A stretch of DNA of 32,000 nucleotides from a cyanobacterium endosymbiont of Epithemia turgida isolate EtSB Lake Yunoko. GTDB lineage: Bacteria > Cyanobacteriota > Cyanobacteriia > Cyanobacteriales > Microcystaceae. How positions within the stretch are numbered: the first letter of the stretch is position 1; each line of letters begins with the position of its first letter. The notes below the pieces were generated by a model. The model saw only the letters and a program-made list of their open reading frames with translations. It ran no database searches and was not told the DNA's origin. Location of the stretch: contig NZ_AP012549.1 in NCBI RefSeq assembly GCF_000829235.1, positions 60,001 through 92,000 of the forward strand, given 5' to 3'. The translations under genes and the position numbers were made by a program. Shown piece after piece: positions 7,823 through 31,640 of this stretch.

Positions 7823-7853
7823 ACCAGATGTTCATTATTAATGAACATCTGGT
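7823..7853 (-). terminator. Intrinsic-terminator-like hairpin overlapping the lgt stop codon
   Basis: Perfect 13-bp arms (accagatgttcat / atgaacatctggt) with a 5-nt loop. On the minus-strand RNA the hairpin is followed by UUUUCCAUUU. The lgt stop codon lies in the loop and the last four codons (PDVH) form one arm. Confidence 0.5.
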
Positions 7854-8689
7854 AGTGATCGCTTTTCCTTATAGAGCCAAATTAAACCCAAAATTCCTAA
7901 TCCTATCATTACTAAACTAATCATTTGAGCAATTTTCAAAGAGCCTAACATTAGGCTATCTGTTCTCAATCCTTCTATCCAAAATCTTCCAAAACTGTAG
8001 GTGATTAAATAGACTAAAGACAATGTACCTACTTGGATTTTATCCCTATGTTTTAATCCAAAAAAAAATAGACTTAATAACAAAAAAAATACTAATACAT
8101 TCCAAATAGATTCATATAAAAAAGTTGGATGAAAATATTCCTCATTAATATATGTTAAAGGACGGTGATTTACAGGAATATATAGTTTCCAGGGTAAATT
8201 AGTCGGAGAACCGAAAGCTTCTGAATTAAAGAAATTTCCCCATCGTCCAATGGCTTGTCCTAAGGTTAAAGATGGCACAATTAAATCTGCTAACTGCCAA
8301 ACAGAAACTTTATTTAAACGAGCAAAAATAATAGCTGTTAAAGTTCCTCCGATAATGGCTCCATGAATGGCAATTCCTCCTTTCCAAATGGCAATGATAT
8401 CCCCTGGATTTTGAGCGTATTGTTGCCATTCAAAGATGACATAATAAAGTCGAGCGCAGGGAATAGAGGAAATTACCAACCAAATCACTAGATCAGCCAT
8501 TAAATTGGGATCAACCTGACGTTTTTTGGCTAACCATTGGGATAAAGCAACACCAATTAAGACCGAAGACGAGATCAATAGTCCATACCAACGAATAGTA
8601 AAAAAACCAATTTCAAAGATAATTGGCCCTGGGGATTGAAACTGAAACCCTAATAAACTGTTCATTATCCAAATTAGTAGTTGAAACAT
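7838..8689 (-). CDS. lgt: Prolipoprotein diacylglyceryl transferase
   Basis: 283 aa polytopic membrane protein with Lgt hallmarks [15 protein letters not shown] and [20 protein letters not shown] start. Confidence 0.9.
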
Positions 8690-8817
8690 CGGAGGAATAG
8701 ATTGTCAATACCAAAGCCAATCAAGTACAATTGCACAAATTAATAGCTTTTGAGTTCTACCAAGTTAGCAGTTAAATATTTTTCTCCTTGTTATTTTCTC
8801 ATAGTTCTTACAATTAC

Positions 8818-9882
8818 CTACTTCCATTCGGGGTGAGATTCTACCGGTAAACAAGGACTATATTGGTTGATCTGATTAATCATTTTATATAAACGACCAA
8901 GGTTGCGTTGATCAAAATGAAATACTAAGCGAGGTAAGCTTTCTGTTTCATCCCCTTTTTCACTAGGTAAGGCAGCACTTTTACAAATTGTTTCCTTGAC
9001 AAGGATATCTGAATAGTCGTCATTGAGCTGGTCTACTTGTTCATCAGATAATTCTGAATTAAGACGCATCACAAATAAATCTCCCACATAGCGACTTGAA
9101 TGATACACGCAATAGAAATTACGGATAACGTTACAGGCATGAGCTAAATTGTCTGTAACAGTATAGAGACTAAAATCTTCTGGACTAATTAATCCCCGTT
9201 GTAAGAAATTCTTCTGGTTATGCTTGTTCCAAATTTTCCAATAGTCGCCTCCAGGTTCATCAATTAATACCAAAGGACAGGGTCCATATTTTCCTGTCTG
9301 AGAAAGAGTTAGGGTTTCAAAGACTTCATCTTGGGTGCCAAACCCTCCTGCAAATAGAGCTACTGCGTCACTTTCTCGCATAAAAAAGAGTTTTCTGGTA
9401 AAAAAGTATTTAAAATTAATCAATTTTGGATCATCAGCAATAAAAGGGTTGGCACTTTGTTCAAATGGTAATTGAATATTAAGTCCAAAAGAATGCTTTG
9501 GTCCTGCTCCTTCATTCCCTGCTTGCATTATCCCTCCTCCTGCGCCTGTAAGAACCATAAACCCAAACTGAGTGATATAACGAGCAAATTCAACTGCTAA
9601 ACGATACTCCGAACTTTGGGGAGACAGACGGGACGAGCCAAAGATAGTAACTTTACGTATGTGACGGTAAGGATAAAAAGTCTTAACCCCTTGTTCTAAG
9701 TCTTCTAGGGTAGCAGTTAAAATTTTCCAGTCGAGGCGGTCTATCTCTTCTCCCGCAATTCTCAACAAGACAGATAGTGCCCGTTTGACTAGGGTGCCAT
9801 GTTCATGTTCTGACAATTTTGCTATTAATTCCCGTATGTCTTTAGCTAAAGAAGGGGTTGTATTATCTTTTGATAAAGTCAT
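8818..9882 (-). CDS. LOG/TIGR00730-family Rossmann-fold protein with N- and C-terminal extensions (PpnN-like nucleotide 5'-monophosphate nucleosidase architecture)
   Basis: 354 aa. Contains LTGAGGGIMQAGNEGA and AGGFGTQDEVFETL (the LOG PGGxGTxxE-type signature). About 110 aa of C-terminal extension (HSSRYVGDLFVMRLN ... LPRLVFHFDQRNLGRLYKMINQIN) resembles the extra domain of long LOG/PpnN proteins. The functional subtype is inferred. Confidence 0.8.
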   Translation of the reverse strand: MTLSKDNTTPSLAKDIRELIAKLSEHEHGTLVKRALSVLLRIAGEEIDRLDWKILTATLEDLEQGVKTFYPYRHIRKVTIFGSSRLSPQSSEYRLAVEFARYITQFGFMVLTGAGGGIMQAGNEGAGPKHSFGLNIQLPFEQSANPFIADDPKLINFKYFFTRKLFFMRESDAVALFAGGFGTQDEVFETLTLSQTGKYGPCPLVLIDEPGGDYWKIWNKHNQKNFLQRGLISPEDFSLYTVTDNLAHACNVIRNFYCVYHSSRYVGDLFVMRLNSELSDEQVDQLNDDYSDILVKETICKSAALPSEKGDETESLPRLVFHFDQRNLGRLYKMINQINQYSPCLPVESHPEWK

Positions 9883-9917
9883 AGTTTTGGATTGAAGACT
9901 ACCCTCATTGTATCGAA

Positions 9918-9967
9918 AATTCTATTTATTCATACACATCTTTATATGTGTATGAATAAATAGAATT
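9918..9967. repeat. Perfect inverted repeat, 22-bp arms, 6-nt spacer
   Basis: aattctatttattcatacacat (9918-9939), ctttat, atgtgtatgaataaatagaatt (9946-9967). Zero mismatches. Lies 36 bp upstream of the LOG-family start codon. Confidence 0.95.
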
Positions 9968-10566: not shown

Positions 10567-10725
10567 ATGGATAATTGTCCTATTTGTTCTAGTCAAATTC
10601 TACGGCATATCAATCATCACAAAATTTACTGGTATTGTCCCCATTGCCATGAAAAGGTTCCTAATTTCACTCGATTTTTAGTTTCTCAGAAGATTCATGA
10701 GGTTGTAACTGAGGAAAAACGTTAA
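10567..10725 (+). CDS. Small zinc-ribbon protein, 52 aa (below the ORF-track length cutoff)
   Basis: ATG..TAA ORF encoding MDNCPICSSQILRHINHHKIYWYCPHCHEKVPNFTRFLVSQKIHEVVTEEKR. Two CPxC knuckles are spaced 18 aa apart (a 4-Cys zinc-ribbon pattern). It has a promoter-like motif upstream and a hairpin 24 nt downstream. Confidence 0.5.
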   Translation: MDNCPICSSQILRHINHHKIYWYCPHCHEKVPNFTRFLVSQKIHEVVTEEKR

Positions 10726-10748: not shown

Positions 10749-10771
10749 TCCTACTCTTTTAAAGAGTAGGA
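10749..10771 (+). terminator. Hairpin downstream of the zinc-ribbon ORF
   Basis: tcctactct / agagtagga complementary arms (9-11 bp) around a tttaa centre. There is no clear U-tract on the plus strand (followed by caacatata), so terminator function is uncertain. Confidence 0.3.
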
Positions 10772-11018
10772 CAACATATAAATACTAATAATATGGACGG
10801 TCTGATCAATCCCGCCATAGCGCACAGTGCACAAGGGATATGATATGGTCAGATACATTGCCAAACTGTTGATTTGTCAAAAATCGGGTTGATATTTTGA
10901 TGATCGATTAATAAACTTGGACAGTCAACCAATCAAATCAATCATCTCAACTCCTTTAAAGAACTTCAACAGATCAATCAAGACTATTTACTCCCCTTAC
11001 GTCAAGAGAGTGCAACGT

Positions 11019-12095
11019 ATGGATTTTTTCGTGCTAGGTAAACTCTTAGCTGGATTAGTATTGTTAGTCGTTGGTGCAGAAGGATTAGTCAACGGTGCGT
11101 CTTTCCTAGCAGCTAGTTTGGGGATTTCTCCATTGGTCATTGGGTTAACTATTGTTGCTTATGGGACAAGTTCACCCGAAATGGCTGTGGCTATTCAATC
11201 AAGTTTTACCGGACAGGCCGATATCGCGTTGGGGAATATAGTTGGTAGTAATATTTTTAATGTCTTAGTCATTTTAGGGTTATCCGCCTTAGCAATGCCT
11301 CTAATAGTGGCACAACAGTTGATTAGACTTGAGGTTCCTATCATGATTGGGATTTCATTGCTGACTTTGTTGTTTGGATTTGACGGCTTGATTAACCGCT
11401 CAGATGGAGTAATTTTAGTAATCGGTGGAATTATTTATACTATTTTTCTCATTGTTAAAGGGTCAAAACAACCTTCTGAAGAAAAAGAATATGAAAAATA
11501 CACCGTTTTAGAAGATATTTCAGTTTTTCAATGGATGAAGAATTTAGGATTAATGTTAGGGGGAACAGGGTTATTAATTTTAGGCTCTCGTTGGTTGGTG
11601 GAAAGTTCTACTAGCATCGCCCTCACCATTGGAGTTAGTGAATTAGTTATTGGTTTGACGATTGTTGCAGTAGGAACGTCATTACCAGAATTGGCCACCT
11701 CAGTTATGGCTACTTTGAAAGGAGAGCGAGATATTGCGGTTGGTAATGTGATTGGAAGTAACATATTTAATATTTCGGCTGTATTAGGAATAGGGGCTAT
11801 GGTTTCTCCTCAAGGCATCCCTGTCTCTAATGCTGCCATTGGATTTGATCTACCAGTGATGATTGCGATCACTATTTCTTGTTTACCTATTTTCCTTACA
11901 GGAAATGTGATCGACCGTTGGGAAGGGTTACTGTTTGTTAGTTATTATATTGCTTACACAACTTATTTAATTCTACGTTCGACGGGACACGATAGCCTAC
12001 ACATATTCAGTAATATCATGCTTCTTGTTGTTATTCCCCTGACTGTACTTACTTTAACTATAGTCACCGTCAATAGTTTATGGAAACAAAGGTAA
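11019..12095 (+). CDS. Ca2+/Na+ antiporter, CaCA family (YrbG-type)
   Basis: Two alpha-repeats: GTSSPEMAV...GNIVGSNIFNV and GTSLPELATS...GNVIGSNIFNI. About 10 hydrophobic segments. I place the start at ATG 11019 (MDFFVLGKLL...). The track ORF from 10917 begins at TTG and adds 34 non-hydrophobic residues. Confidence 0.85.
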   Translation: MDFFVLGKLLAGLVLLVVGAEGLVNGASFLAASLGISPLVIGLTIVAYGTSSPEMAVAIQSSFTGQADIALGNIVGSNIFNVLVILGLSALAMPLIVAQQLIRLEVPIMIGISLLTLLFGFDGLINRSDGVILVIGGIIYTIFLIVKGSKQPSEEKEYEKYTVLEDISVFQWMKNLGLMLGGTGLLILGSRWLVESSTSIALTIGVSELVIGLTIVAVGTSLPELATSVMATLKGERDIAVGNVIGSNIFNISAVLGIGAMVSPQGIPVSNAAIGFDLPVMIAITISCLPIFLTGNVIDRWEGLLFVSYYIAYTTYLILRSTGHDSLHIFSNIMLLVVIPLTVLTLTIVTVNSLWKQR

Positions 12096-12412: not shown

Positions 12413-12451
12413 TCTATTTACTCTATCATGAAAAATAATGGAGTAAATAGA
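12413..12451. repeat. Perfect inverted repeat, 11-bp arms, 17-nt spacer
   Basis: tctatttactc (12413-12423) and gagtaaataga (12441-12451). Individually compatible with chance in AT-rich DNA. Confidence 0.8.
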
Positions 12452-13065: not shown

Positions 13066-15474
13066 TTAGTAAGGCCATTTCCATTCAGTTATTTCTGGTT
13101 TGTCGATACCATTATCATAGGCATAAGCTCTATGTGCCATAATAGCATTCTTCATGTGTTCATGAACATAAGCGGCGGCTGACCCTAATTTAGAAACACG
13201 GTGAATGACATCAATCACTAAATTAAAGCGATCAACTTGATTATTCATCGCTAATTCGAGGGGGGTGTTAATATTACCCTTTTCCTTATAGCCGCGAACA
13301 TGAAGGTTAGCATGATTGGTGCGACGATAGGTTAACTTATGAATTAACCAAGGGTAGCCGTGAAAGTTAAAAATAATAGGCTTATCTTTAGTAAACAAAT
13401 TATCAAAATCCCAATCTGAAAGTCCATGAGGATGTTCTCGTTCCGGTTGTAATTTAAACAAGTCAACTACATTAATAAACCGCACTTTTAATTCAGGAAA
13501 TTCTTCTCGTAAAATAGCAGTAGCGGCTAAAGCCTCTTTAGTGGCAATGTCGCCACAACAGGCCATAACCACATCAGGGCTATCAAGTTCTGTGCCACAA
13601 TCATCGTTACTAGCCCAATCCCAAATACCAATGCCCTTAGTACAATGTTCAATAGCTTTTTCTATGTCTAAATATTGGAGGTGTTTTTGTTTATCGGAAA
13701 CGATGACGTTAACGTAATTCTTACTTCGAAAACAATGATCTCCAACAGACAGTAAACAGTTAGCATCGGGGGGGAAATACACACGAACTATGTTTGCACT
13801 CTTATTGGTAACAAGATCAACATACCCTGGATCTTGGTGACTAAACCCATTATGATCTTGTCGCCAAACAGTGGAAGACAACATGATATTTAGGGAAGAA
13901 ATTGATGCCCGCCAAAATACTTTATTTTTGCAGATATCAAGCCATTTAGCATGTTGGTTAAACATTGAGTCAACCACATGAGCAAACGCTTCATAGGTGT
14001 GGAAGAATCCGTGACGACCTGTTAATAAATAGCCTTCTAGCCATCCTTGTAACGTATGTTCGCTCAATATTTCCATTACCCGTCCATCAGTGGCAATTTC
14101 AGTGCCGTCAGCATCTTCAGGCAGAATATCAGCCATCCATACTTTTTTACTTGCTTGGTAAATATTGCTTAGACGATTAGATGCAGTCTCATCAGGACCA
14201 AAAACACGGAAGTTAGTCATGTTGTTAGCCATGATATCCCGTAAAAAATTTCCAAACAAGAAAGTATTTCCCACCTCTATTGTTCCAGGCTTGGTTACTT
14301 CAACTTTATAGTTACGGAAGTCAGGCATTTTAAGGTTTTTACGGAGTAACCCTCCATTGGCGTGAGGGTTAGCACTCATGCGGCGATAGCCGATGGGGGC
14401 AAGTTTCTGTAATTCGGAAATTAATGTACCATTTTCATCAAAAAGTTCTTCGGGTTTGTAACTCTTCATCCAGTCCTCAAGAACTTTTAAGTGAGCAGCA
14501 TTATTGTGCATTTCTGATAAGGGAACTTGATGTGATCGCCAGAAGTTTTCTGTTTTCTTGCCATCTACTTCTTTAGGGCCTGTCCATCCTTTTGGAGAGC
14601 GTAACACAATCATTGGCCACATGGGGCGTTTAGCTGTCCCACTACTATGCGCTTCTTGTTGAATTTGTTTAATTGCTTTGATCGCTGCTTCCATGGTAGC
14701 GGCCATTTTCTGATGCATTACTTCAGGATCAGAGCCTTCGACAAAATAAGGTTTATAACCATACCCCTTGAAGAGACATTCTAGTTCTTCATGACTAATA
14801 CGAGCCAAAATTGTCGGATTAGCAATTTTATAACCGTTGAGGTGCAAAATAGGTAACACAGCACCATCACGTACGGGGTTGAGAAATTTATTAGAATGCC
14901 AAGAAGTGGCTAATGGTCCAGTTTCTGCTTCTCCATCTCCTACCACGACAGCAACGATAAGGTTGGGGTTATCTAAGGCCGCACCGTATGCGTGGGAGAG
15001 ACAATAGCCCAATTCTCCCCCTTCATGAATTGATCCAGGAATTTCTGGAGTACAATGGCTACCGATTCCCCCAGGAAAGGAAAACTGCTTGAAAAACTTT
15101 TTCATTCCCTCCTCATCTTGGCTTTTATCAGGGTAAGTCTCAGAATAGGTTCCTTCAAGATACACTGGCCCGAGTATTCCGGGAGAGCCGTGACCAGGAC
15201 CTGTTATATAGATTGCGTCTAAATCATATTTTTTAATCAGGCGATTGAGGTGGATATAAACAAAGCTCAAACCAGGACTTGATCCCCAATGTCCCAACAA
15301 ACGCTTTTTAATGTGTTTTTCCTGTAAAGGTTCTTTGAGTAAAGGATTATCTTGTAGGTAAATCATCCCAACAGCAAGGTAGTTACAAGCTCGCCAATAA
15401 GCATTAATTTGTCGTAAATCGCTGTCAGAAAGAGGATTTTCTTCTAAAGTTAAGTTTTCTGGTGTAGTTGTCAT
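13066..15474 (-). CDS. xfp: Xylulose-5-phosphate/fructose-6-phosphate phosphoketolase
   Basis: 802 aa. XFP signatures [34 protein letters not shown] and [15 protein letters not shown]. The full-length ORF is intact. Confidence 0.93.
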
Positions 15475-15610
15475 AGTTTATCGTTTTAAATTTGTATTTA
15501 AAGTTTATTACTGTAAATTAGTTACTTTTATTTAGTATAGTTATTTTTTTAAAATTTATTCACGTATATTCAAAAATTAAGTAACTGTAATAGCATGGCG
15601 ACTATAATTT

Positions 15611-15651
15611 TTTCATAGTAGCAATTTTTTGTAAATATTGCTACTATGAAA
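15611..15651. repeat. Perfect inverted repeat, 15-bp arms, 11-nt spacer, in the xfp-gap divergent intergenic region
   Basis: tttcatagtagcaat (15611-15625) and attgctactatgaaa (15637-15651). Lies 137 bp upstream of the xfp start and directly abuts dispersed-repeat copy A. Confidence 0.9.
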
Positions 15652-15663
15652 GGCTTTCAAATT

Positions 15664-15772
15664 ATCAGAACTCGGTACTTATAAAGATTAAGTCTTTGAA
15701 GTTATAGAATTTCATTAAAATAAGAGTTTTGGAGTTTGTTAGCTACTAATTTATAATTCTTGGTCGAGAAGA
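15664..15772 (+). repeat. Dispersed repeat, copy A (~109 bp)
   Basis: Aligns by eye at roughly 75% identity with 20085-20191. Shared blocks: atcagaa, ttataaa-attaagt-tttgaagtta-agaat, aaaat, agttttgga, ttagctact-attta, ttct, aaga. Confidence 0.75.
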
Positions 15773-15997
15773 GCTATGACTGTTTACTAATTTAGAAAGT
15801 TTAGTGATTTAAAACAAACAATGTAATTCAAGAGAATTTTTTTAAGTTATGGGATTAAATCAGAATGATGAAATAGTTAAAATTTTAAAAAATTTATGAA
15901 ATACAGAAATATCAGCTAAATATATATAAAATATTGATATTTTAGGCTTCACTTAAGATATAAGTTACGGGAAATACAGTACTGTAAGAACAAATAG

Positions 15998-17092
<1,095 letters not shown>

Positions 17093-17238
17093 TTTCTTCG
17101 GCTCTTCTAGACGACTAGCTGTGGAAGAGCTATAATAGTTGACACTACACACCCTTTCCTAAGTTATAAAATACTTCCAAAGTAGAAGTTCTAGGGTGCG
17201 ATTTTAATTGATGGATCTAAAAGAGAACATCTAGTTTC

Positions 17239-17276
17239 CCATCATAGTTCTTTAACTCCATCATAGTTCTTTAACT
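17239..17276 (+). repeat. Exact 19-bp tandem duplication
   Basis: ccatcatagttctttaact occurs twice back to back (17239-17257, 17258-17276). A 9-bp tandem (atctggttt x2) lies about 80 bp downstream. Confidence 0.95.
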
Positions 17277-20191: not shown

Positions 20192-20265
20192 TCCATATAT
20201 TGTTTTATATCTAGCACGTCTACCCAGCAGTTCTTATCATTTACTTTATAGGCTAAATCCACTAT

Positions 20266-21452: not shown

Positions 21453-21502
21453 ATAACTTTAAGCATTGAGATATTTGCACATATCTCAATGCTTAAAGTT
21501 AT
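21453..21502. repeat. Perfect inverted repeat, 22-bp arms, 6-nt spacer
   Basis: ataactttaagcattgagatat (21453-21474), ttgcac, atatctcaatgcttaaagttat (21481-21502). Same 22/6 geometry as 9918-9967 but unrelated sequence. Confidence 0.95.
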
Positions 21503-23158
21503 TTGAATAACTATTCACACTCAAGTAGAAGATAACTACGATGAAGTAGTAATTTCACTATGAGCAATCTGTACTAACTTCAATTAGAATGACAAAGATA
21601 TCTATTTTATAAACTCGGGTAAATAGTCTATGAACTCCGTTGATAACGAAGTCCTTTTTATAGTCTTACTTACTTCATTTTTTTCATTATTTATAATGAT
21701 TTCTCTGGTATTTTAAGTCTATTGTCATGATAACTCACTTAACTTTTTAGAAACTGATTGAAGCTCAGCTTTTACGCTTACAAAACTTCATAAAAAAAGC
21801 AAGATAAGATATAAAAGTAATAGTTACAGTTTTTTTATGCAAGAGGGGAAGAACCTAAAACTTTTTATCAAGTAAGTTCTACAAAAGTTAGTTTGGCAGC
21901 ACGGGGGAGTCCTCACTCTAGTTTCTTTTGTAGGAGGCAGAAAAATTGGGGAGATTTTAAACAAATAAAATAGGCTAGATAGAGCAATTTTATTACATGA
22001 ACTCGATCTTCTGGTGAGAAATAACATTCTCTATTACCATTAACCACAATAATTAACCAGTTAGGAGTAGCTGGAAAAATTTTAGCCGCTTACTTATCTG
22101 AAAACACTAGAGAATGGGAACACGATCTTTCTTTTTCTTGAATAATCTTTATGTAAATTATTTTTCTAGTTATATTTTCTGATAGATTTAATCAATCTAT
22201 AATTTTTAAAATTTTTTATCCTCTTGAATTTTAACATAATATTTGTACTTTTGTTCTCGTTATAGAGAAAATTTTTAGCATTAGTTGACTTTAATGTTTC
22301 TTATTCCTCTAATCTTATTAGCTTAATTCTTAGCTAAAGTGGTATTTAATAAGCACTCTTTTGTAACCACCTTATTTTAAAATTAATTTAGCTATCAACT
22401 TGTACTTTAATTAATTCAATTTTCTTGTTAGTCCTTTTTACTACTTTCTGGAGAGTTCTATTTTTAAAATATATACAATTTTGTAATCCATCTGCTTATT
22501 ATCTAATAACTATTCTCCTCTTTTATTGAAAAAATATTTTCTTAGACTAAAAAATATTTTTATTTTTTATCTTAGCTTTTTCTTGTTTACTATTTAATAG
22601 TATTTTTTTAGGTTACTTTTAAGTCTTTTTGTTGTTCTTTATTTTATACTTTTTTTGCGGGGTTATTGATAATTTGTCTGTATTTATGATGTATTTTTTT
22701 TACTTCTATTTTGGTATTATAAAATATTTATTTCAATGCCTTGAAAACCATATTTTAATAAAATTATGCTACTACCTTTTTATTTATTTTCATAAAAAGC
22801 CATACGTTTTCTACCTTGTATACTCAACTAAGGCTGCTGTATCATTTTTTTCTTTAAAAATAAGTTATTTCATCTTTACTGAGTAACATAATCTCTGCTT
22901 GGCTGTAAAAATAAGTATTTTATAGATCAGTAAACAGAAAAAACTTAGACTTTAATTATGCTAATCTATTTAATTTAAAAAAGTAATAAATCTTAAGTAA
23001 ATTGTAGGTTATATTACGCTTTACTAATAAAAAAACCTTATGTATATTCTTAATTATAGCGTAAGAAAAATCATAGTTTAACTTATAAACAATCAAAAGT
23101 TCACCTAATGTGCCCTACTTGGTATTTTTTTCTCAAAAATTTATTAACCAGCAGATAG

Positions 23159-24208
23159 TTAATAATATTTATGGGTTAAAAAAGGTACTTTTATTACTTT
23201 TCCTCGTGCTTTTTCTATTTGAATGCTTAATTCTACTCCTCCTGCTTTGGTGCTAATATAAGCTAACCCAAAAAAACTTTGATTAATCTCAGTACAACTT
23301 GTCAAAATTCCTACTTTTTTTCCATCCAAAATAACTGGAGTTCCTGGAATAATCTCTTGACTCAACTTAACTCCCCATAGTCTTTGTTTGACTCCTTTAT
23401 AGGTATTTAGACGAGCAATGGTTTCTTGTCCAATATAACAGCCTTTTTCAAAGGAAATGGCTCGCCATAATCCTGCTTCTAGGGGATTATAATCTTCAGT
23501 TAATTCCTTATCAAAAAGCGGTCTTCCTTGTCGTATTCGTAATTGTTCCCACACGCGATCTCCGATAGGAATAATTCCTAATTGTATTAATTGCTCCCAA
23601 ACAGTTTTGGCTTGATTGATTGGAACAATTAAGGTATAGCCGGGGATAGCTAACCCACTTCCTACAGCTATCCTCATAGAAGCCTCTCCTATAGCCGTTA
23701 AACAATGACTTTCTGGTAGAAGTTCAGCCAAACCATTAATCCCCCCTTTTTTTAGAAAGGAAGTACATTCGGAACCAATTAAGGTAAAAACAATATTTTG
23801 ATCGGAAACATCTGTAATTTTTACTTTATCCATAGGAAAGATGTACCGGTCTATCCACTCCATCAAGAAGTGACGACGGTTTGGGGAAACCAAAATCAAG
23901 ATTGAGTCGTTTGTGACGTAAACTGTAACCAAATCAATGATTCTACCAGTAGAATTGATAAAAACGGTGTCACACGCTAGTCCTGGCTTTAATTTATTAA
24001 TATTATTGGTAGTTTGATTATGAAGGAAACGTAAGCGATCATCTCCTGTAAGTTTTAGAAGTCCCCAATGACTGCGATCATAAATAACCGCTTTGCTATA
24101 AGCTGTTTCAAATCCTTCACTATCATTGCCAAAACTACCGATTCTTGTTTTATTTTCTGTTAAAGTTGTCTCTGATTGTCTTTGAATTTTATGTATTTTT
24201 TGTCTCAT
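23159..24208 (-). CDS. ygfZ: Folate-binding YgfZ / GcvT-like protein (Fe-S cluster maintenance)
   Basis: 349 aa. GcvT-fold N-terminal region (DRSHWGLLKLTGDDRLRFLHNQTTNNI) and the YgfZ signature KGCYIGQETIARL. Confidence 0.85.
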   Translation of the reverse strand: MRQKIHKIQRQSETTLTENKTRIGSFGNDSEGFETAYSKAVIYDRSHWGLLKLTGDDRLRFLHNQTTNNINKLKPGLACDTVFINSTGRIIDLVTVYVTNDSILILVSPNRRHFLMEWIDRYIFPMDKVKITDVSDQNIVFTLIGSECTSFLKKGGINGLAELLPESHCLTAIGEASMRIAVGSGLAIPGYTLIVPINQAKTVWEQLIQLGIIPIGDRVWEQLRIRQGRPLFDKELTEDYNPLEAGLWRAISFEKGCYIGQETIARLNTYKGVKQRLWGVKLSQEIIPGTPVILDGKKVGILTSCTEINQSFFGLAYISTKAGGVELSIQIEKARGKVIKVPFLTHKYY

Positions 24209-24403
24209 AATTGATAATAAAATTTGATACTAAATTAATAAGTTAGTTTACTAAATATTTCCATTGTAATTCGTTGTTATTTTATATATCGTTACCAATT
24301 GACTTCTCCTGTTTCATTAAAAAATTAATATTTCTGATCGTATCAACATTACAATCCTACAATTTTACTTCAATGAAAGCTAACTAAACATTTAGTTTAG
24401 AAT

Positions 24404-24460
24404 ATTTTATTAAATAAGTCAAATATGGTTATTAACCATATTTGACTTATTTAATAAAAT
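24404..24460. repeat. Perfect inverted repeat, 27-bp arms, 3-nt spacer (longest in the window)
   Basis: attttattaaataagtcaaatatggtt (24404-24430), att, aaccatatttgacttatttaataaaat (24434-24460). Lies in the divergent ygfZ / ORF-24660 intergenic region. Confidence 0.95.
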
Positions 24461-24659
24461 GCTTTTTAACTTAATTTTGACAATTGTTTACTTAAGTTAT
24501 TCATCACCCAGATAAAAATAGGTTGAATGATAACTTCTACTTCTCGTAGATTCTCTATTATGCTAAATATAGATTTTATTGTTAACATCGGGGTTTCCTC
24601 TATATCGACGTCAAAAAACATTATAATGCTAGCCTAGCGGTGTTTCTCTTTTTTAAAAA

Positions 24660-25394
24660 ATGACCGAACAACAATTACATCCAAGATTTTATTGGTTTTA
24701 TATCATTATTTCCAATATTTTCCTAATCTTTATGTTGAAAACTCCAGCTGATAGTCAATTCTCATCAGAGGTTAATCCTATTCAGGATAGTTCGCTTGAA
24801 AATACCTTTGATTTACCACAAGAAATTATTGAAGATAGCCCAGTCTTAAAAAGATGGTTAAATAACATTCCTAATATTTTATATGATATTTATACTGATC
24901 CGAGTTTTCGAACACGTGTGGGAATAGGATACGCAGAATTTCCTTCTACTGAACATGATGGAGGAATTAATATTACGGTTGATGATATTTTCATTGGGAA
25001 AACTGGTTTGACAATTAGCGGTGACTATCAAACTTCTTTTGGAAGAAGAGATGCAGGAGGGGTTAACTTACAATATTATTTGTTGCCTTTGGGAAATTAT
25101 ATTAATGTTGCTCCTATGGTAGGATATCGTTCAATCTCCACTAATAACTATTCTGAAAGTGGAGTGAACATTGGAGGTAAATTGTTTTTTCCCTTATCAC
25201 GTACTGGCGCATCTGATATTTCCTTGTCTCACAGTTTTATCTCTCCTGGTGAAGATAATGAAGTAGGGATTACAACGCTTTCTTTTGGTTATGCAATTAC
25301 TAAAAATATTCGATTGGCTACAAAAATTGAAAGACAAAATTCACAGGTAAAAAAAGATAGCAAAATTGGCGTTATATTTGAATTAATACCATAG
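24660..25394 (+). CDS. Hypothetical protein with an N-terminal membrane anchor/signal and a beta-strand-rich C-terminal domain
   Basis: 244-aa ATG ORF of non-low-complexity composition in a window where decayed DNA holds no ORF this long. Hydrophobic N-terminus (FYWFYIIISNIFLIFML). Alternating-polarity strands (ITTLSFGYAITKNIRLATKIERQ) suggest a beta-barrel-like fold. No family recognised. Confidence 0.55.
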   Translation: MTEQQLHPRFYWFYIIISNIFLIFMLKTPADSQFSSEVNPIQDSSLENTFDLPQEIIEDSPVLKRWLNNIPNILYDIYTDPSFRTRVGIGYAEFPSTEHDGGINITVDDIFIGKTGLTISGDYQTSFGRRDAGGVNLQYYLLPLGNYINVAPMVGYRSISTNNYSESGVNIGGKLFFPLSRTGASDISLSHSFISPGEDNEVGITTLSFGYAITKNIRLATKIERQNSQVKKDSKIGVIFELIP

Positions 25395-25452
25395 TTTAAT
25401 ACTATATTTTGAAATAAAAATGGTGAAATAAATTATTAAGCAATAGACCACA

Positions 25453-26235
25453 ATGAGAACCTATTTACAAGTTTTACGATTATTTTGGACAACATCAGTT
25501 ACAGCAGAATTAGAATATCGATTTAACTTTATAATTGCTATGGTTAGCAGTTTTGCTAATTTGATTGGAAGTTTATTTAACCTATTCCTATTCTATGGAA
25601 CAGGTTATACCTTTCATGGATGGACCTGGGACGAAGCAATGATAGTGGTAGGAATATTTACTTTCTTACAAGGTATTTATACTACTTTTTTAGTCCCTAA
25701 TCTAAATCGAATTGTCGAACAAGTAGAGAAAGGAACCCTAGATTTCGTGTTACTGAAACCAATTAGTAGTCAATTTTGGTTGTCTTGTAGAATTTTATCT
25801 CCTTGGGGATTTTCAGATTTGGTTTTTGGGGTAATTATAATTTTCTATTTTAGTTCTAAACTATCTTTACATCTAGGAGACTATATACTCAGTTGTATAA
25901 CAATAATTTTGGGCATTACCATTTTGTATAGTATTTGGTTTATCTTAGGAGCAACCAGTGTATGGTTTGTCAAAATTTATAATGTGACTGAAGTTCTAAG
26001 GGGATTATTAGAAGCAGGTAGATATCCCATAAGTGCTTATCCTAAGATCTATCGTTTTTTCTTGACTTTTGTAATTCCTATTACTTTTTTAACCACTGTT
26101 CCGGCAAAGGTACTTTTAGGAAAAATTGAAGGTTTATGGATTTTAGGCGCAATACTAATAGCATTATCTCTATTATTGATCTCTCACTATTTATGGCAAT
26201 TTGCTCTTCGTTTCTATACTAGTGCTTCTAGTTGA
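25453..26235 (+). CDS. ABC-2 family transporter permease (DUF990 type)
   Basis: 260 aa with 6 hydrophobic segments. Family-typical N-terminus ...TAELEYRFNF... and the GTLDFVLLKPIS motif. Confidence 0.8.
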   Translation: MRTYLQVLRLFWTTSVTAELEYRFNFIIAMVSSFANLIGSLFNLFLFYGTGYTFHGWTWDEAMIVVGIFTFLQGIYTTFLVPNLNRIVEQVEKGTLDFVLLKPISSQFWLSCRILSPWGFSDLVFGVIIIFYFSSKLSLHLGDYILSCITIILGITILYSIWFILGATSVWFVKIYNVTEVLRGLLEAGRYPISAYPKIYRFFLTFVIPITFLTTVPAKVLLGKIEGLWILGAILIALSLLLISHYLWQFALRFYTSASS

Positions 26236-26301
26236 TTTTTACTTTATAAACAAGGACTTCTTCTACTGCTAAAAATATACAATAACTTTATTGTAATTTA
26301 A

Positions 26302-27032
26302 AATATAAGCTACAGTTATCCCGATGTGACTTACCCTCTGAACGGAATTAACTTATCAGTTCAAGAGGAGAAGAGAGTTGCCATAATTGGAGCAAACTGA
26401 TCGAGAAAATTCACTTTACAATTTCACCTCAATGGAATTTTTCTACCTCAGTTAAGAAATATTAAAGTAAGGTAGTAGGAAGTTAATACTCAAAATTTTA
26501 CCAAGATCAGAAATTTTGTTGGTTTAGTTTGTTAAAATATCGATAATCAGCTATTTATACCTACTGTGTGGGATGATATCGGTTTTAAACCGAAAAATGG
26601 TGGTATAAAGGGAAACCCCTGTAATTAAGAGTTTGAGAGGCTATGGAAGCGGTAAAAATAAATCCCAGAATCTATAGTTTAAGGAGCGCTGATAATTTAT
26701 CAGAAGGAGAAAAAAAGCGGGTAGCAACTGCCGGAGTTTTAGCCATGCAGCCTCAAGTGTTAGTGTTAGATGAACCTTCTTCCCAACTTGATCCCTGTTC
26801 TCGACGCTATTTAATTGGCTTGCTACAGACTTTTTCTCTAACTCAATTAATTGCTACCCACGACCTTAATTAATTTAGCCTGGGAATTATGTGAGCGCAC
26901 TATTATCTTAGGCAAGATCAGATTGTCTATGATGGTGATACAGACAGGATAATGAGCGATCAAAACTTTTTAAAGAAACAGGACTTAGAAACCCCTCTCA
27001 TCTCAGTTACAGTCGCCCCTACTGTAATTTAG
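26302..27032 (+). pseudogene. cbiO: CbiO/EcfA-type cobalt/ECF ABC transporter ATPase, inactivated
   Basis: The translation follows the CbiO order across several frames. The N-terminus is truncated. NISYSYPDVTYPLNGINLSVQEEKRVAIIGAN*SRKFTLQFHLNGI carries a TGA inside Walker A (expected GANGSGKSTL). Further pieces are VGLV..NIDNQLFIPTVWDDIGF and LSEGEKKRVATAGVLAMQPQVLVLDEPSSQLDP (decayed signature plus Walker B). The remaining pieces are LIATHDLN, ELCERTIILG and VYDGDTDRIMSDQNFLKKQDLETP. The 76-aa track ORF (26643-26873) is one piece. Confidence 0.8.
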
Positions 27033-28423
27033 GAGACGCCCCTTAAGTGAGTACAGAAAAGGCGAAGTTGAAATTTATGCTCTTAGAGTGGAAACATACC
27101 ATAGTTACCTCGAGTCATTGTATATTGTTAAACCTCTGCCTGCTCTATAAAATGCTTTAACCTCGAGACAGAATACAGAAAAAGTTTTTAAGCAAGAGTT
27201 AGCTGTGTTCTGTTGATAGAGTGTTCAAGATTAATAAATACAGTTGCAGCTTTTGTTTGAGTAATTAGATTTTTCAGCTACAAACGCTTAATTTAGTATT
27301 TAATTAGCATTTTTTAGGTGTTAAAAGTAAAAATTTTTTTAAAATTAGGATACCTAGATAAGATGAAAAGCTATCAAGGTCAATAGAAAATAAAAGTAGA
27401 AAATTATAGATTAAGTTCAACTATTTTAAAATAATTGTTTAGTTTTACGAAGGGACTCGATTAAGTTATTCAATAAATTATGATTATGAAATATACAGGA
27501 TTGTAAGTCTTCTGCTGACAATCTTGAAAAATAGCCTAGGGTAGGCTTCACCTATATTTTTACAAACTACAAAAAAGTTTAGGTTTAGCTTGTACTAAGT
27601 TATTTTTTTAAAAAATGGGGTGAAATGACTAAAATTAGAACACACAAGCGTTAAGCAATCTTGTCATCGATTCGCTTGAACCGACCCAAGTAGAAAAAAT
27701 ATTTTCTAGGGTGACAACAAACTGTTTCTGGTTAGAGATTTTCGCAATTGCTCTCTTCAAGAAGTCTTGGTTACTCTTCTTTAAATAAGATACTATCTAT
27801 CTCTATAACTGTACTTCTAGAATGAGTTTTGTGGACATCGTTGATCTAACTTTGACTCTAAGGGTTTATAACTTTGTTTCTCAAGAGTTACGTGCAGCAG
27901 AAGACTTCGAGTTCAAGATATTCTACACTAAGAATATTTTTCTTATTACAAAAGTTCACGAACTCTGATGGCTTTTTTAGAGAAACCCAAGACTTTATCT
28001 TCCTTTGAGGAGGCACTTTCCCATAGTAACGCGCTTTCATGTATATGTTGCCAGTGAACGTGATATTGAATGAATCTACCGGTTTTGCGTGGTGGTCAGA
28101 CAAGCAAGCTTAATTAGCCTTTCTGGTCAACTTCTTGGTATTCATGTTACTTAACTTACGCCAGTAGATTTGGTGTGCTATTGTTGATATGTTGGTATTT
28201 TAAAGTTCTGTTCTTTGGCGGTGCTTATGAAGCCATAAAGTAAAATGGTGATATATCAAATCTTCGACATTTTAATTCTACAAGATGACAATAGAGTTAC
28301 AGAGCTTAAAATTCTATAGATTTAGTTATCATGGAATAAAGCTTTAGACTGTCACTAACTATTCAGTTGAGCGCGGCTAGATTTTCAGCTAAAACTTTAA
28401 CAATTGTCTATAAGAAGTAATAT

Positions 28424-28458
28424 AGACTAATTTACCTATTTTTAGAGTAAATTAGTCT
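28424..28458. repeat. Perfect inverted repeat, 12-bp arms, 11-nt spacer
   Basis: agactaatttac (28424-28435) and gtaaattagtct (28447-28458). Confidence 0.85.
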
Positions 28459-28722
28459 GAAGCAAGTCACTATACTTTCTCTTCTTTTTTTAAAATAGGT
28501 TGAAAATTCTAACATCACTAAAATTTTGTGTTCTATGCAGTTTAAAATCTATTTTAGGGTGTCTTCTCAAGAAGAATGATCAATTATATTAGAGAATAGA
28601 ACCTCACACTGCCATTGCGTTTTTAATCAAAAATTAATCCTTTGAATTGACTAAGAATGTTGCAAAAATTAGGTGCTATAGTCAAATAGATTTGCCAGAG
28701 AATTATCATAGTAGACGCAATT

Positions 28723-29205
28723 GTGATGCTTAATTTCTCTTTTAAGTTAATGTTAATGACCTTTAAGGGCAAGCTTTTATGTGCTTTTTCTCTTTACAAG
28801 AGATATCGTGTTGTTAGTACCGCCCCTGTCGACGTTCTTTGGCAGAAATTAATTAATTTGGCTGATGTTTCTTGGCATCCCCTATTCTCAAAAACAAATG
28901 TCCCTTTGGGACTAATTGCGAAACCAGGGTTGATTTATCAAGTAGTAACACGCCTCACCCCCATCCCCATTCGTCTATTTGTAGAAAATGTAAGGCCAGG
29001 AGAATTATTAAGTATGCGAGTTTTAGCTATTCCAGGAATTGAACAGAAAATCACTTATCAAGTAGAGTCTACTCTCTGCGGGTCTTATATTTCCTATTCA
29101 GTGACTTTACGTGGATGGCTATCTCCATTGATCTGGTGGCTTATCAAACCCTATTCTGCTCGTGTCGCCTCTGAGTTAGCCAATGCGGCCGAAAGATTAG
29201 CTTAA
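28723..29205 (+). CDS. SRPBCC-superfamily (polyketide cyclase/dehydrase-like) protein
   Basis: About 145-160 aa. The pattern V.STAPVDVLWQKLINLADVSWHP ... RVLAIPGIEQKITYQVES ... ends in a C-terminal helix (ARVASELANAAERLA) typical of the START/Bet-v1-like fold. The track start is GTG 28723. In-frame ATGs at 28726, 28750 and 28756 are equally plausible. Confidence 0.6.
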   Translation: MMLNFSFKLMLMTFKGKLLCAFSLYKRYRVVSTAPVDVLWQKLINLADVSWHPLFSKTNVPLGLIAKPGLIYQVVTRLTPIPIRLFVENVRPGELLSMRVLAIPGIEQKITYQVESTLCGSYISYSVTLRGWLSPLIWWLIKPYSARVASELANAAERLA

Positions 29206-29239
29206 TCCTCTTTGCTTAGTTAAATGCACCAAAGTTGAA

Positions 29240-29507
29240 CTAATCGTAGTTTAATCTTGCAAGTCGCTGTTGAATGTGAGCCAGGTAGATTTTGTTGTCA
29301 ATAGCAACTCTTGGGGATGGTAATTTATTATTTGGCTAACCGGGCAAGTTAACACATAAGGCACACAGGGGAAGTACCTCCAGAAATAGCGACAGGACAA
29401 GACATCCCACACCTTGTCTATTCGACTAGCTCCCACTCGGGATTCAATAGTTGTTGAATAGTTTGTTCAGCACCCTCCAGATAACAATCAGCATCTATGG
29501 CGAAGAT
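29240..29507 (-). pseudogene. N-terminal relic of a PP-loop ATPase, TilS-like (tRNA(Ile)-lysidine synthetase family)
   Basis: One minus-strand frame reads IFAIDADCYLEGAEQTIQQLLNPEWELVE*TRCGMSCPVAISGGTSPVCLMC*LARLAK**. AISGGTSPVCL resembles the SGGxDS PP-loop followed by the CL..LL of TilS N-termini. A shifted frame continues KLPSPRVAIDNKIYLAHIQQRLARL (compare the AHxxHxLR motif). There is no start codon, and the rest of the gene is absent. Assignment from memory of the family pattern only. Confidence 0.3.
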
Positions 29508-29640
29508 CTATTGCTAGTAGCTTCCGAAGTCATATCTATAAACCTTTCTGTGGTCAGCAGTGCAACCTCATGCTAACACCTGTATTGTTTTTCATCATTC
29601 TTTGTAATTTTATATTTACAATGATTCTCTTCTCAGAGGT

Positions 29641-29670
29641 TCGCCAAGTTAACCTAAGTTAACTTGGCGA
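29641..29670. repeat. Perfect inverted repeat, 13-bp arms, 4-nt spacer, built over the 3' end of the cobU pseudogene
   Basis: tcgccaagttaac (29641-29653), ctaa, gttaacttggcga (29658-29670). The present stop codon of the cobU reading frame (TAG, complement of cta) is in the loop. Confidence 0.95.
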
Positions 29671-30160
29671 TTGCCCCCAGGTGTCGGGTTAAATTTCCTA
29701 GGCGATCACAAAATGTACGTCTTAAGGGGAAAGTTGGAATGACTCCCCATCCTGCCTCCTCAGCTACTAAAACAACATCTACCGGGGTCGTTTCTAAACG
29801 GTCTAAGAATTGAGCCATCGTCTTTATCCAGGTCAAACCATCTTGTTCTAGACAATTGGACACCCAGGTTTCTAGAGAATCAATCAAAAGACAATGAGGC
29901 GGCGTAACTGTTTCTAATATAACTGATAAGTAATAGGGAACTCGTCGGGTTTCTCAATGGGGAAGACGACGTCCTCGATGGCGAGTAATCCTTTCTAGCC
30001 ATTCTGGGTCCTGGGTATTATCTAAGGCTGTAGCGATATAAATAACAGGCTTCTTAGATTTTTCAGCCAGGGTTTCAGCCCACTCACTTTTACCTTAAGG
30101 GGTAGGCCCAGTTACTAAAATAATTTGTTGGTTTTGAAGCGGTTCTAAATCATTTACCAT
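29654..30160 (-). pseudogene. cobU: Adenosylcobinamide kinase / adenosylcobinamide-phosphate guanylyltransferase (CobU/CobP), inactivated
   Basis: A single frame from ATG 30160 reads MVNDLEPLQNQQIILVTGPTP*GKSEWAETLAEKSKKPVIYIATALDNTQDPEWLERITRHRGRRLPH*ETRRVPYYLSVILETVTPPHCLLIDSLETWVSNCL...VVLVAEEAGWGVIPTFPLRRTFCDRLGNLTRHLGAIAKLT*. There is a TAA inside the P-loop (expected G..SGKS) and a TGA where the family has a conserved Trp. The C-terminus is about 15 aa short. The 77-aa track ORF (29654-29887) is the tail. Confidence 0.85.
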
Positions 30161-31605
30161 AATAACTAGAATTGCTTTGAAATTTTAGGACTCAATAAAT
30201 TCCACAAAAAAAGTATATATTCCATGATCGATCATCCTTTTAGCTTGAGATAAAGCGGTATAAAAATTAGCCATTGTCTCAGTGACAAAAATAAAAAGTA
30301 CCGGACGTTATACCCAAAGAATCTATCTTAAACCTGGAGATATTTCGAAGTCAGTTAAAATAGTATGAATATTTATCATGATTTTATTTTAATATTAATA
30401 ATTTAATTAATATTAAAAAATATAATTTATTTTAGTTTAGCACTAATAATTATTAATTCTTGCTCTTTATTTTTATTTTCATAAAGTAGACAAAAAATAA
30501 ATTAATTATATCCAGGGTTTTAAGATTTAATAATAAGTGTGTAAGGTTTGCTTATTTATTGTTAGCCTTGAACACCATAAATCATAAAAAATAATTAGCA
30601 AAAAATGACAACTAACTTATTAAAAACTTTTTGACTTTAATTATACTGTATTTATGTTAACTTTAGCAACCTTAAAGCAAGTAATTTTAGTCTAATTATA
30701 GGGTTAATCTACGATACTATAACATTGTTGATAATTTCTGATAACGCAATATAAATTCTTCGATGTTTAATCATAATGATTGAAAGTTAACTATGATGAA
30801 TTCTCGATTTGGTATATAGTGTAGGTTCAACTATAATTTAGTTAACAAGAAGTTTTTTTCACCACTAGGCTAATTGATTTGGAGTTGATGGATGTTTTCC
30901 AAGCTTTAATACTTTAAAATCAGCTGATGTACTTGCAAAACTTGTCTACGGACTTGACTTAAGGAAGTTGACACGTAGAATATTAGCTCTAGATTAAATT
31001 AATCACAATTGAGCGTAATTTGTATAAAACAACCTATTTATTAAGATTTTTATTTAAATAGAAATTATTATATCTAATAAGTAAATTAGTAAAATACTAG
31101 GCATGATATGCTTAAATAATTTATATAAATTTTAGCTATATTTTTTAGACAGTTGTTTATAAAAAATTTTTTATATAACCAGATTAATAAAAAAATAAAC
31201 ATAAGTTTTATGTATTTTAATAGGTGACAATAGCGGAAAAAATAATTAAAAATATTTTTTTGAAATAGAAATTAAGCTGCAATTATATTTGTTATAATTT
31301 ATCTTATAAGTTCTCTTGTCGGACCAGTTTATTTTAATAAAAAAGAAACCACGCAAACAGTTGTTAACGTTGGTACGAACAAGGGAATAAAAAATAACTC
31401 ACCTTCTGTTTCGTAATTTTAGTGAGATTTAAACTTTGTTACAGTTAATTTTGTACTTTATCTACTACAATAATAGTTTTATTTCTTAAAGCAGATCGTC
31501 ACTCCATTTTTAATAAAATTACGCTAAGTGAGCACTCTTTACTACGTAAAAGGTTTAAAATTTACTTTTAACTTCCTGAGAAAGGTTATTTAAAGTTTCT
31601 CTAAG

Positions 31606-31640
31606 ATTTAATGTATTTATCGTTGATCAATACATTAAAT
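31606..31640. repeat. Perfect inverted repeat, 12-bp arms, 11-nt spacer
   Basis: atttaatgtatt (31606-31617) and aatacattaaat (31629-31640). Same 12/11 geometry as 28424-28458 but unrelated sequence. Confidence 0.85.

Follow-up and report, generated by a model that had tools for sequence, protein, structure and literature searches.

Perfect hairpins in the decaying DNA of a diatom endosymbiont as likely footprints of short-range template switching

A stretch of 32,000 nucleotides (hereafter the window; contig NZ_AP012549.1, positions 60,001 to 92,000) was analysed from the genome of EtSB, the nitrogen-fixing cyanobacterial endosymbiont ("spheroid body" or diazoplast) of an Epithemia turgida-type diatom, and was found to contain a population of perfect or nearly perfect hairpin inverted repeats. 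These hairpins are likely to be footprints of short-range template switching, or quasipalindrome-associated mutation, in decaying endosymbiont DNA. The finding is non-random and is explained by a known mutational mechanism on an unusually clear new substrate: flawless hairpins amid decay call for no new genetic system, since known template switching at quasipalindromes would suffice.

An excess of perfect hairpins

Perfect inverted repeats with loops of at most 10 nt were searched for exhaustively in the window, and their number was compared with that in 100 dinucleotide-preserving shuffles made within 500-nt blocks. Nine repeats possess arms of at least 12 bp (shuffle mean 0.10), six possess arms of at least 14 bp (0 in the shuffles) and four, with arms of 22-28 bp, exceed 20 bp (again 0), the longest arm over all 100 shuffles being 13 bp. 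Chance is thereby ruled out as the origin of arms of at least 14 bp. The four long hairpins (24404, 9918, 19153 and 21453; hairpins are named by their first position, and full coordinates are given in Table 1) have predicted RNA folding energies of -26 to -30 kcal/mol (ViennaRNA, RNA parameters).

An earlier note, made from the letters of the window alone, had argued that four arms of 21-27 bp were too long to be due to chance; four such arms exist, although at measured lengths of 22-28 bp, and the shuffled window, with no arm of 20 bp or more, bears the argument out. Its caution that A/T-only examples of 11-13 bp could singly be chance also agrees with the shuffles, which reach the size of 30387, 22530 and 19517. 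Its list of twelve perfect repeats needs revision: eight are perfect, whereas 12413, 15611 and 31606 contain mismatches and 28424 has an 11-nt loop, and the perfect repeats 2845-2877, 10749-10771 and 22530-22561 and the one-mismatch repeat 2892-2933 had been overlooked.

Ancestral and derived states of the hairpins

YgfZ, which is encoded in the window, is 100% identical to a protein of the E. turgida-type spheroid body, and its further protein matches identify the endosymbionts of other Epithemia and Rhopalodia diatoms as the next relatives of EtSB, followed by free-living Rippkaea and Crocosphaera. Syntenic loci were available from the R. yunnanensis symbiont (L082), the Epithemia symbiont CP123991 (L083 and L090), RgSB, the spheroid body of a Rhopalodia species (AP018341; L084), the R. 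sterrenbergii symbiont (L085), a 3.09-Mb diazoplast genome from ENA (L086 and L092) and a 2.48-Mb genome similar to uoEpiScrs1 (L087). A JGI metagenome contig (JGI 3300079868; L093) represents a closer relative, with 95% amino-acid identity in YgfZ, 96.6% nucleotide identity in coding sequence (CDS) and ~86% identity in intergenic DNA. On a single-gene neighbour-joining tree of YgfZ proteins, EtSB falls into a polytomy with the first four of these relatives, and the 3.09-Mb and 2.48-Mb genomes lie outside. The non-coding DNA of EtSB and its relatives is alignable at 70-88% identity.

At most sites, the alignment with relatives that the earlier note had proposed reveals one arm that is ancestral and a second that is its reverse-complement copy. 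The new arm is the exact reverse complement of the orthologous neighbouring arm at 24404, 19517, 2892 and 31606, and the same is found at hairpins 14629 and 4080 of the R. sterrenbergii symbiont. The best candidate for a single template-switch event, as read from the alignments, is 24404, which lies in the divergent intergenic region between ygfZ (-) and a gene of 244 amino acids (+). The ancestral state, common to four relatives, reads ...GGTTATTAACCAG(A/G)AT...TTTTxATAAATT, and the ancestral seed is the 5-bp palindrome GGTTA-T-TAACC. The left arm is conserved in EtSB (89% identity to RgSB), and the right arm past the seed is the exact reverse complement of the left and has replaced an ancestral sequence that was 8 nt longer. 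The R. sterrenbergii state is partly readable at this site, with a run of N at ~9700-9760 of L085 upstream of ygfZ, and the contig of the closer relative ends 3 nt past the seed, those 3 nt being ancestral and not palindromic. The arms of 24404 and of R. sterrenbergii 14629 match the relatives in a single orientation, and therefore just one arm pre-exists at each.

A side observation at this site concerns promoters. The palindrome duplicates, in inverted orientation, a TTGACT hexamer that lies 17 nt upstream of a TAAACT/TAAAAT hexamer (24394-24460), and predicted promoter-like -35/-10 pairs are now directed at ygfZ as well as at the gene of 244 amino acids. A template switch at 24404 may have copied a promoter element.

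The remaining sites with one rewritten arm occur in decayed, intergenic, pseudogene and coding DNA. The right arm of 19517, in decayed DNA, is conserved in five relatives, and three to four clustered changes found only in EtSB make the left arm its reverse complement. At 31606, also in decayed DNA, the right arm is common to Epithemia CP123991 and the left arm has been re-templated, with accompanying indels; the R. sterrenbergii symbiont carries an unrelated 25-bp perfect palindrome at the equivalent spot (L085 2824-2873). Hairpin 15611 is specific to EtSB and lies in the intergenic DNA that separates the divergent genes xfp (-) and gap (+); one arm is as in the relatives and the other is new, and the change came with deletions when compared with the R. 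yunnanensis and R. sterrenbergii symbionts. Hairpin 29641 sits inside the cobU pseudogene; all six relatives possess an intact cobU (189-192 amino acids) with 31 nt more at this place, and the EtSB deletion and clustered substitutions jointly form the 13-bp hairpin. Within the intact tamB-like open reading frame (ORF), the left arm of 2892 (TTAATGCYAAGTTAA) is ancestral, and the right arm has changed from TTACTTTAACAGGAA to TTGACTTAGCATTAA, the reverse complement of the left, by the rewriting of 7 of 15 positions, which turns the peptide TLTGN into DLALN. A second EtSB-specific hairpin, at 2842-2880, lies ~12 nt upstream of this one and comprises 11 EtSB-specific changes in 39 nt, compared with ~10% divergence in its flanks; the encoded peptide has changed from RTGKIPLDEIVPN to KSCQISFDKIFPD with the reading frame intact.

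Other hairpins are mosaic or have ancestral roots. Upstream of the LOG-family gene, 36 nt from its start codon, is hairpin 9918, whose outer stem, TTCTAT...ATAGAA, recurs in the 3.09-Mb diazoplast genome and in the free-living Rippkaea PCC 8801. In the mosaic inner stem, ACACAT of the left arm corresponds, as reverse complement, to ATGTGT in the ancestral right arm, and the outer part of the right arm corresponds in the same way to the ancestral left arm. The hairpin combines an ancient outer stem with a perfect inner part specific to EtSB. In its own right, a 7-bp inverted repeat, CTTCTAT...(~21 nt)...ATAGAAG, is conserved directly upstream of the LOG-family gene from free-living Rippkaea PCC 8801 (L174 9930-9975) to the diazoplasts, and may serve this gene as a regulatory or leader element.

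Hairpin 10749 lies 24 nt 3' of a small Zn-ribbon ORF and derives from an ancestral 6-bp stem, CTCTTT/AAAGAG, which was lengthened by five EtSB-specific changes over both arms. Hairpin 19153, in decayed DNA adjoining the site of a ppsA deletion, corresponds to a quasipalindrome with 12 of 22 positions paired in four relatives, and the EtSB changes are clustered in both arms. Hairpin 7823 overlaps the lgt stop codon, its right arm being the conserved 3' end of the lgt CDS; 11 of its 15 positions are paired in relatives and a T-tract follows on the - strand, and it is probably an lgt terminator perfected in EtSB. Hairpin 21453 lies upstream of the GFO/IDH/MocA pseudogene; every ingroup relative carries it with 1-3 mismatches (19 of 22 positions paired in their consensus), and its outer pairs covary, with AACT/AGTT in EtSB and ACAT/ATGT in Epithemia CP123991. 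The element is old, but its perfect state is confined to EtSB, and hence either continuing correction or selection must be at work on it. Hairpin 28424 is likewise ancestral, with mismatches or bulges in four ingroup relatives and 12 perfect pairs in EtSB. The earlier note's picture of mismatch-free arms in decaying DNA holds for the perfect EtSB arms, but 21453, 28424, 7823 and the outer stem of 9918 are ancestral imperfect structures, some of them probably terminators or regulatory repeats, that were perfected or extended. In the convergent intergenic region of the Na/Ca exchanger gene (+) and a holin-like gene (-), which contains 12413, the R. yunnanensis symbiont possesses a wholly different perfect 16-bp hairpin (L082 20278-20319), and RgSB possesses a 19-bp perfect version of 22530 at the same place (L084 11749-11790). 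The relatives are poorly alignable at 30387, which lies in decayed DNA and is weak as a single case.

At most sites the consensus of the relatives is already paired at 50-86% of stem positions (for example 12/22, 18/28, 13/24 and 19/22), against an estimated ~28% expected from composition, and this range may be inflated as the alignments are of a palindrome against relatives. Pairing is lower at 28425 (1/12) and at the R. yunnanensis hairpin RyunSB 20278 (6/16). The high ancestral complementarity fits pre-existing quasipalindromes as seeds.

Every sister lineage carries events of its own. Private perfect hairpins of 24 and 20 bp are present in Epithemia CP123991, of 25, 24 and 18 bp in the R. 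sterrenbergii symbiont, of 22 bp in the 3.09-Mb genome and of 19 bp in RgSB. Where these are alignable, one arm is ancestral (R. sterrenbergii 14629, 24 bp, and 4080, 18 bp), and at position 1311 of the 3.09-Mb locus a conserved GC-rich terminator stem between convergent genes has been lengthened to 22 bp. Arms of at least 12 bp occur at 28 per 100 kb in the window and 16.6 per 100 kb in six relatives, compared with 1.1 in 92 kb of Rippkaea PCC 8801 and Crocosphaera-like contigs (33-41% G+C) and 2.7 in 80 loci from assorted free-living bacteria, values that are expressed per total kb and not per non-coding kb. The diazoplast density is hence ~15-25 times that of the free-living Rippkaea and Crocosphaera loci over the few hundred kb sampled, and the larger non-coding fraction of diazoplast genomes must account for part of the excess. 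Arms of at least 20 bp number four in the window, six in the relatives and 0 in the 92 kb of Rippkaea and Crocosphaera DNA, the Crocosphaera-like contigs of which came from a metagenome scan with the LOG protein that gave no close relative of it (best match 76%). The 188 arm nucleotides of the four long hairpins contain 0 mismatches, which places divergence since formation or last correction below 1.6% (95% bound), compared with an intergenic difference of ~14% between EtSB and the closer relative L093.

Template switching and its alternatives

Under short-range template switching, a nascent strand that had copied a short or imperfect inverted repeat would fold back or pair with the opposite strand, would be extended on the other arm as template, and would then return to the original template. 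One flank would be replaced by an exact reverse-complement copy of the other, and the palindrome would be extended or "corrected" in one step, often with a net indel. Short palindromes that were already in place, including some old terminators or regulatory inverted repeats, would act as the seeds, and the products would be tolerated in gene-poor, weakly constrained, A+T-rich diazoplast DNA and would accumulate independently in each lineage. The perfection of the stems would reflect youth or repeated re-correction. We infer this replication-level mechanism from the anatomy of the aligned sites; most of the hairpins probably have no function of their own, and tolerance or an elevated rate would lie behind their high density. 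Template switching is economical because it explains one-arm copying, indels, growth from seeds, lineage specificity, occurrence in any genic context, and perfection. Seeds are identifiable at 24404, 10749 and 9918 and in the terminator stem at 1311 of the 3.09-Mb locus, and the expected clusters of lineage-specific change include the 8-nt length change at 24404, the 31-nt deletion at 29641 and the 11 changes at 2845. Of the two origins suggested in the earlier note, de novo creation or selection, creation by template switching would apply at most sites and selection probably to a subset. The note's remark that no described system obviously matches does not stand, as the enrichment and creation of hairpins by template switching have been described (PMC5941160, PMC8794818).

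Several results weigh against template switching as the explanation. Both arms have changed at 9918, 10749, 19153 and 2845, which is not the outcome of one one-way copying event and requires at least two events or compensatory selection. The conservation of 21453 and 28424 hints at selection for a hairpin there, as do two spots that are occupied by unrelated hairpins in separate lineages (12413 and R. yunnanensis; 31606 and R. sterrenbergii). The 24-bp perfect palindrome of CP123991 (L083 9535-9584) is contained in a 70-nt insertion peculiar to that genome, and a search for the source of the insertion (L083 9500-9584) gave no match in ~370 kb of diazoplast DNA. In an unbiased scan of EtSB-specific mutation clusters, 4 of 143 (2.8%) have a nearby reverse-complement copy, compared with 0.8% in controls, and reverse-only matches amount to 2.1% compared with 1.2%, on small numbers and a crude alignment. 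This weak enrichment suggests that template switching explains the hairpins but a small share of mutation clusters, and the case rests mainly on site-by-site anatomy. Polarity depends on the single-gene tree and, below 12 kb, on one ingroup lineage and one outgroup, and the density comparison is limited by its basis in total kb and by the size of the sample.

It is unlikely that the hairpins as a set are selected functional elements, namely intrinsic (often bidirectional) terminators, 5'-leader structures or protein-binding palindromes that are kept perfect by purifying and compensatory selection and whose long stems compensate for low G+C. Such a role is favoured at 7823 by the lgt stop codon and T-tract, at 10749 and 12413 by positions directly past gene ends, at 21453 and 28424 by retention in all ingroup relatives and, for 21453, by covariation of the outer stem, and at 9918 by an outer stem conserved out to free-living Rippkaea. 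The recurrence of different hairpins at the spots of 12413 and 31606, and the extension of a conserved terminator between convergent genes in the 3.09-Mb genome, point in the same direction. However, the perfect form of the longest hairpins (24404, 19153 and 9918) is lineage-specific, and the locations are varied, which argues against a single function: 3 of the 16 hairpins are at the 3' end of an intact gene, three separate divergent genes (24404 and 15611 among them), three lie in coding or pseudogene sequence (2845 and 2892 in an intact CDS, 29641 in a pseudogene), and the rest lie in decayed DNA, including 19153, 19517, 30387 and 31606. A sense stem-loop directly 3' of a gene and followed by a U-tract is present at 7823 and arguably at 10749, 12413 and 9918, but not at 24404, 19153, 21453, 15611, 2845, 2892 or 29641. 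A consensus terminator scan of the window flags 7823, 9918 and 10749, all on the - strand, and shows no overall excess of terminator-like sites over shuffles (10 versus 8.8, and 5 versus 5.9). On these locations and scan results, the proposal that all hairpins are terminators is rejected. At 22-28 bp, with predicted folding energies of -26 to -30 kcal/mol, the long stems seem to exceed what an intrinsic terminator requires. The one-step signatures with indels fit a mutational event better than stepwise compensation, and the closest free-living relatives are almost devoid of such hairpins (1 in 92 kb). A scan of the whole window against Rfam at gathering thresholds gave no match to a known structured RNA family. 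Selection for hairpin function is probable in a subset (7823, 10749, 12413, 21453, 28424 and the outer stem of 9918), and the recurrence of hairpins at some spots may be due to it.

Cyanobacteria are known to contain small dispersed repeats, and the CP123991 palindrome at L083 9535-9584 lies in an insertion found in no other genome compared, yet it is very improbable that the hairpins are small mobile palindromic elements of the MITE, REP, SDR or Rickettsia palindromic element type inserted at these sites. The 16 arms of the window and the relatives were compared with one another and with the ~370 kb of diazoplast DNA, which comprises the window and eight diazoplast loci and is less than a whole genome. 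Each arm matches solely itself, its partner arm and its ortholog; no second copy of any arm was found in that DNA, and no similarity between hairpins was found among the arms beyond 6-9-nt chance words. The clustering of arms that the earlier note had suggested therefore uncovers no hidden family, in line with its statement that the arms lack a common consensus. No target-site duplications were seen at the hairpins, and at most sites one arm is orthologous to the sequence of relatives, such that there is no contrast of empty and filled sites, with the CP123991 insertion as one possible exception. A MITE or REP family is rejected on these unrelated arms, which are single-copy within the ~370 kb, and the note's view that the hairpins are not copies of one MITE is upheld.

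Chance in A+T-rich sequence, or an assembly or amplification artefact, has a negligible claim, since A/T-only examples (30387, 22530 and 19517) are singly near the shuffle range but arms of at least 14 bp are beyond it, since an assembly from another sequencing run (Logan SRR29904087; L081), which is 100% identical to window 13159-32000 including the hairpins, leads to rejection of an assembly artefact, and since diazoplast genomes from different projects carry the same type of feature.

If the hairpins are products of template switching, a further and rather doubtful possibility is that diazoplasts have a specifically elevated rate of fold-back or template switching, or have lost the removal of long palindromes, possibly in connection with unusual replication, making this a so far unrecognised driver of turnover. 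In spheroid bodies, dnaA is reported to be universally absent and replication and repair genes to be otherwise largely intact (bioRxiv 10.64898/2026.03.19.712447). Loss of hairpin and single-stranded-DNA nucleases (SbcCD, ExoI/VII and RecJ) might explain the excess but found no support, the statement just cited being the only one found in the literature. If either possibility holds, palindrome creation would be a quantitatively important driver of sequence turnover, pseudogenisation of the kind seen in cobU, the birth of promoters and terminators, and protein change as in the tamB-like gene, in early organelle evolution. The high density may reflect either more frequent events in diazoplasts or simply a better tolerance of their products.

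Known systems, gene content and minor observations

Perfect inverted repeats are reported to be enriched in proteobacteria, an excess that has been put down to template switching (Lavi et al. 2018, PMC5941160); this mechanism also underlies the quasipalindrome mutation hotspots of E. coli examined in template-switch assays (PMC7202029). As in the proteobacterial study, the hairpins exceed composition-matched null expectations, the excess grows with arm length, and no sequence family is involved. Unlike there, the arms are far longer (22-28 bp), the density is far above that of the free-living relatives sampled, and the focus is on lineage-specific creation and extension in decaying DNA and not on the conservation of inverted repeats across species. 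Template-switch mutations are reported to create and maintain hairpins (Monttinen & Loytynoja 2022, PMC8794818), and short-range template switching is reported from primates (PMC7954356) and from coding and promoter DNA of yeast (PMC8604942, PMC13100816). As in those studies, one event at the EtSB sites would produce clustered substitutions, in some cases along with an indel, that amount to a reverse-complement copy of the adjacent sequence, and such events can create long perfect stems and multi-residue protein changes, here in the tamB-like gene. Those studies concern eukaryotes or structured RNA genes, whereas the present case concerns a bacterial endosymbiont in early organellogenesis and mostly non-genic DNA.

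The likeness to intrinsic terminators is confined to stem-loops past gene ends (7823, 10749, 12413 and the site in the 3.09-Mb genome), some of which seem to have acted as seeds. The majority of the long hairpins, by contrast, lack a suitable upstream gene or a U-tract or are situated in coding or promoter DNA. Rickettsia palindromic elements, REP/BIME and cyanobacterial SDR/MITEs resemble the hairpins in being scattered, mostly intergenic and sometimes intragenic hairpins of bacterial, in part reduced, genomes, but they are multi-copy families with a recognisable consensus, whereas the hairpins of the window are all unique and locally derived. The coding palindromes of Nematomorpha mitochondria (PMC6649704) are also perfect inverted repeats within protein-coding genes of a reduced, endosymbiont-derived genome, but they are pervasive and up to 284 bp long, compared with two short ones in a single gene here. 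A term search of three diazoplast papers (PMC5638926, PMC12377750 and bioRxiv 10.64898/2026.03.19.712447) returned no mention of hairpins, palindromes or template switching.

The window therefore offers an unusually clear natural case in a bacterium that is turning into an organelle, with ancestral and derived states both visible, independent events in every sister lineage, and a reach into coding DNA. If the excess is genome-wide, template switching would have to be modelled when diazoplast sequences are aligned and dated and when selection is inferred, because each event mimics many substitutions and an indel; it would also be a candidate source of new terminators or promoters, and the excess would suggest that replication or the processing of hairpins differs in these endosymbionts in a way that can be tested.

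The G+C content of EtSB is ~32% across the window and the ORFs are cyanobacterial. Long stretches between the ORFs contain gene fragments only, and three of these correspond to genes that are intact in several relatives (Table 1).

Table 1. Hairpins, open reading frames and pseudogene fragments, with their positions in the window
Feature	Position	Strand	Description
Hairpin	2845-2877 (extended 2842-2880)		14 perfect pairs; 17 with 1 mismatch
Hairpin	2892-2933		15 pairs with 1 mismatch
Hairpin	7823-7853	-	15-bp perfect arms
Hairpin	9918-9967		22-bp perfect arms
Hairpin	10749-10771		11-bp perfect arms
Hairpin	12413-12451		17 bp with 2 mismatches
Hairpin	15611-15651		19 bp with 1 mismatch
Hairpin	19153-19198		22-bp perfect arms
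Hairpin	19517-19544		12-bp perfect arms
Hairpin	21453-21502		22-bp perfect arms; 25 bp with 1 mismatch
Hairpin	22530-22561		11-bp perfect arms, A/T-only
Hairpin	24404-24460		28-bp perfect arms
Hairpin	28424-28458		12 perfect pairs, 11-nt loop
Hairpin	29641-29670		13-bp perfect arms
Hairpin	30387-30418		13-bp perfect arms, A/T-only
Hairpin	31606-31640		16 bp with 1 mismatch
tamB-like gene	698-6646	+	ORF, intact
lgt	7838-8689	-	ORF
LOG-family gene	8818-9882	-	ORF
Na/Ca exchanger gene	10917-12095	+	ORF
Phosphoketolase (xfp)	13066-15474	-	ORF
gap	16004-17092	+	ORF
ygfZ	23159-24208	-	ORF
ABC-2 permease gene	25453-26235	+	ORF
GFO/IDH/MocA oxidoreductase	20266-21302	-	Pseudogene fragment; intact in several relatives
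ABC-transporter ATPase	26643-26873	+	Pseudogene fragment; intact in several relatives
cobU	29654-29887	-	Pseudogene fragment; intact in several relatives

Vitamin B12 synthesis is reported to have been lost in the symbionts of Epithemia sensu stricto (bioRxiv 10.64898/2026.03.19.712447), which the loss of cobU in EtSB fits. The ppsA (PEP-synthase) gene, which is ~2.3 kb long and encodes 769-791 amino acids in all six relatives, has been almost wholly deleted in EtSB, with ~200 nt left between alignable flanks (window 17566-17764 compared with L083 17919-20275). The small ORF upstream of hairpin 10749 (10567-10725, +) encodes 52 amino acids with two CxxC motifs, is Zn-ribbon-like, and is kept in all diazoplast relatives examined, with 65 amino acids in L090. 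A look-up of the exact phosphoketolase sequence gave no record. Among the matches listed for the phosphoketolase, the best is from Stigonema (78%) and many are from non-cyanobacterial metagenome-assembled genomes (~70%), a pattern that may reflect horizontal mobility of xfp or simply a partial listing of matches. A tRNA and tmRNA scan of the window returned no genes.

HIP1-type octamers of the relatives, GCGATCGC, are degraded to GCGATCAC in EtSB in the alignments around window ~29700-29720, which fits A+T-biased decay. An imperfect hairpin at 6781-6836, with 25-nt arms that are 76% complementary, lies ~135 nt 3' of the stop codon of the tamB-like gene and may be an old terminator or a quasipalindrome that was left "uncorrected".

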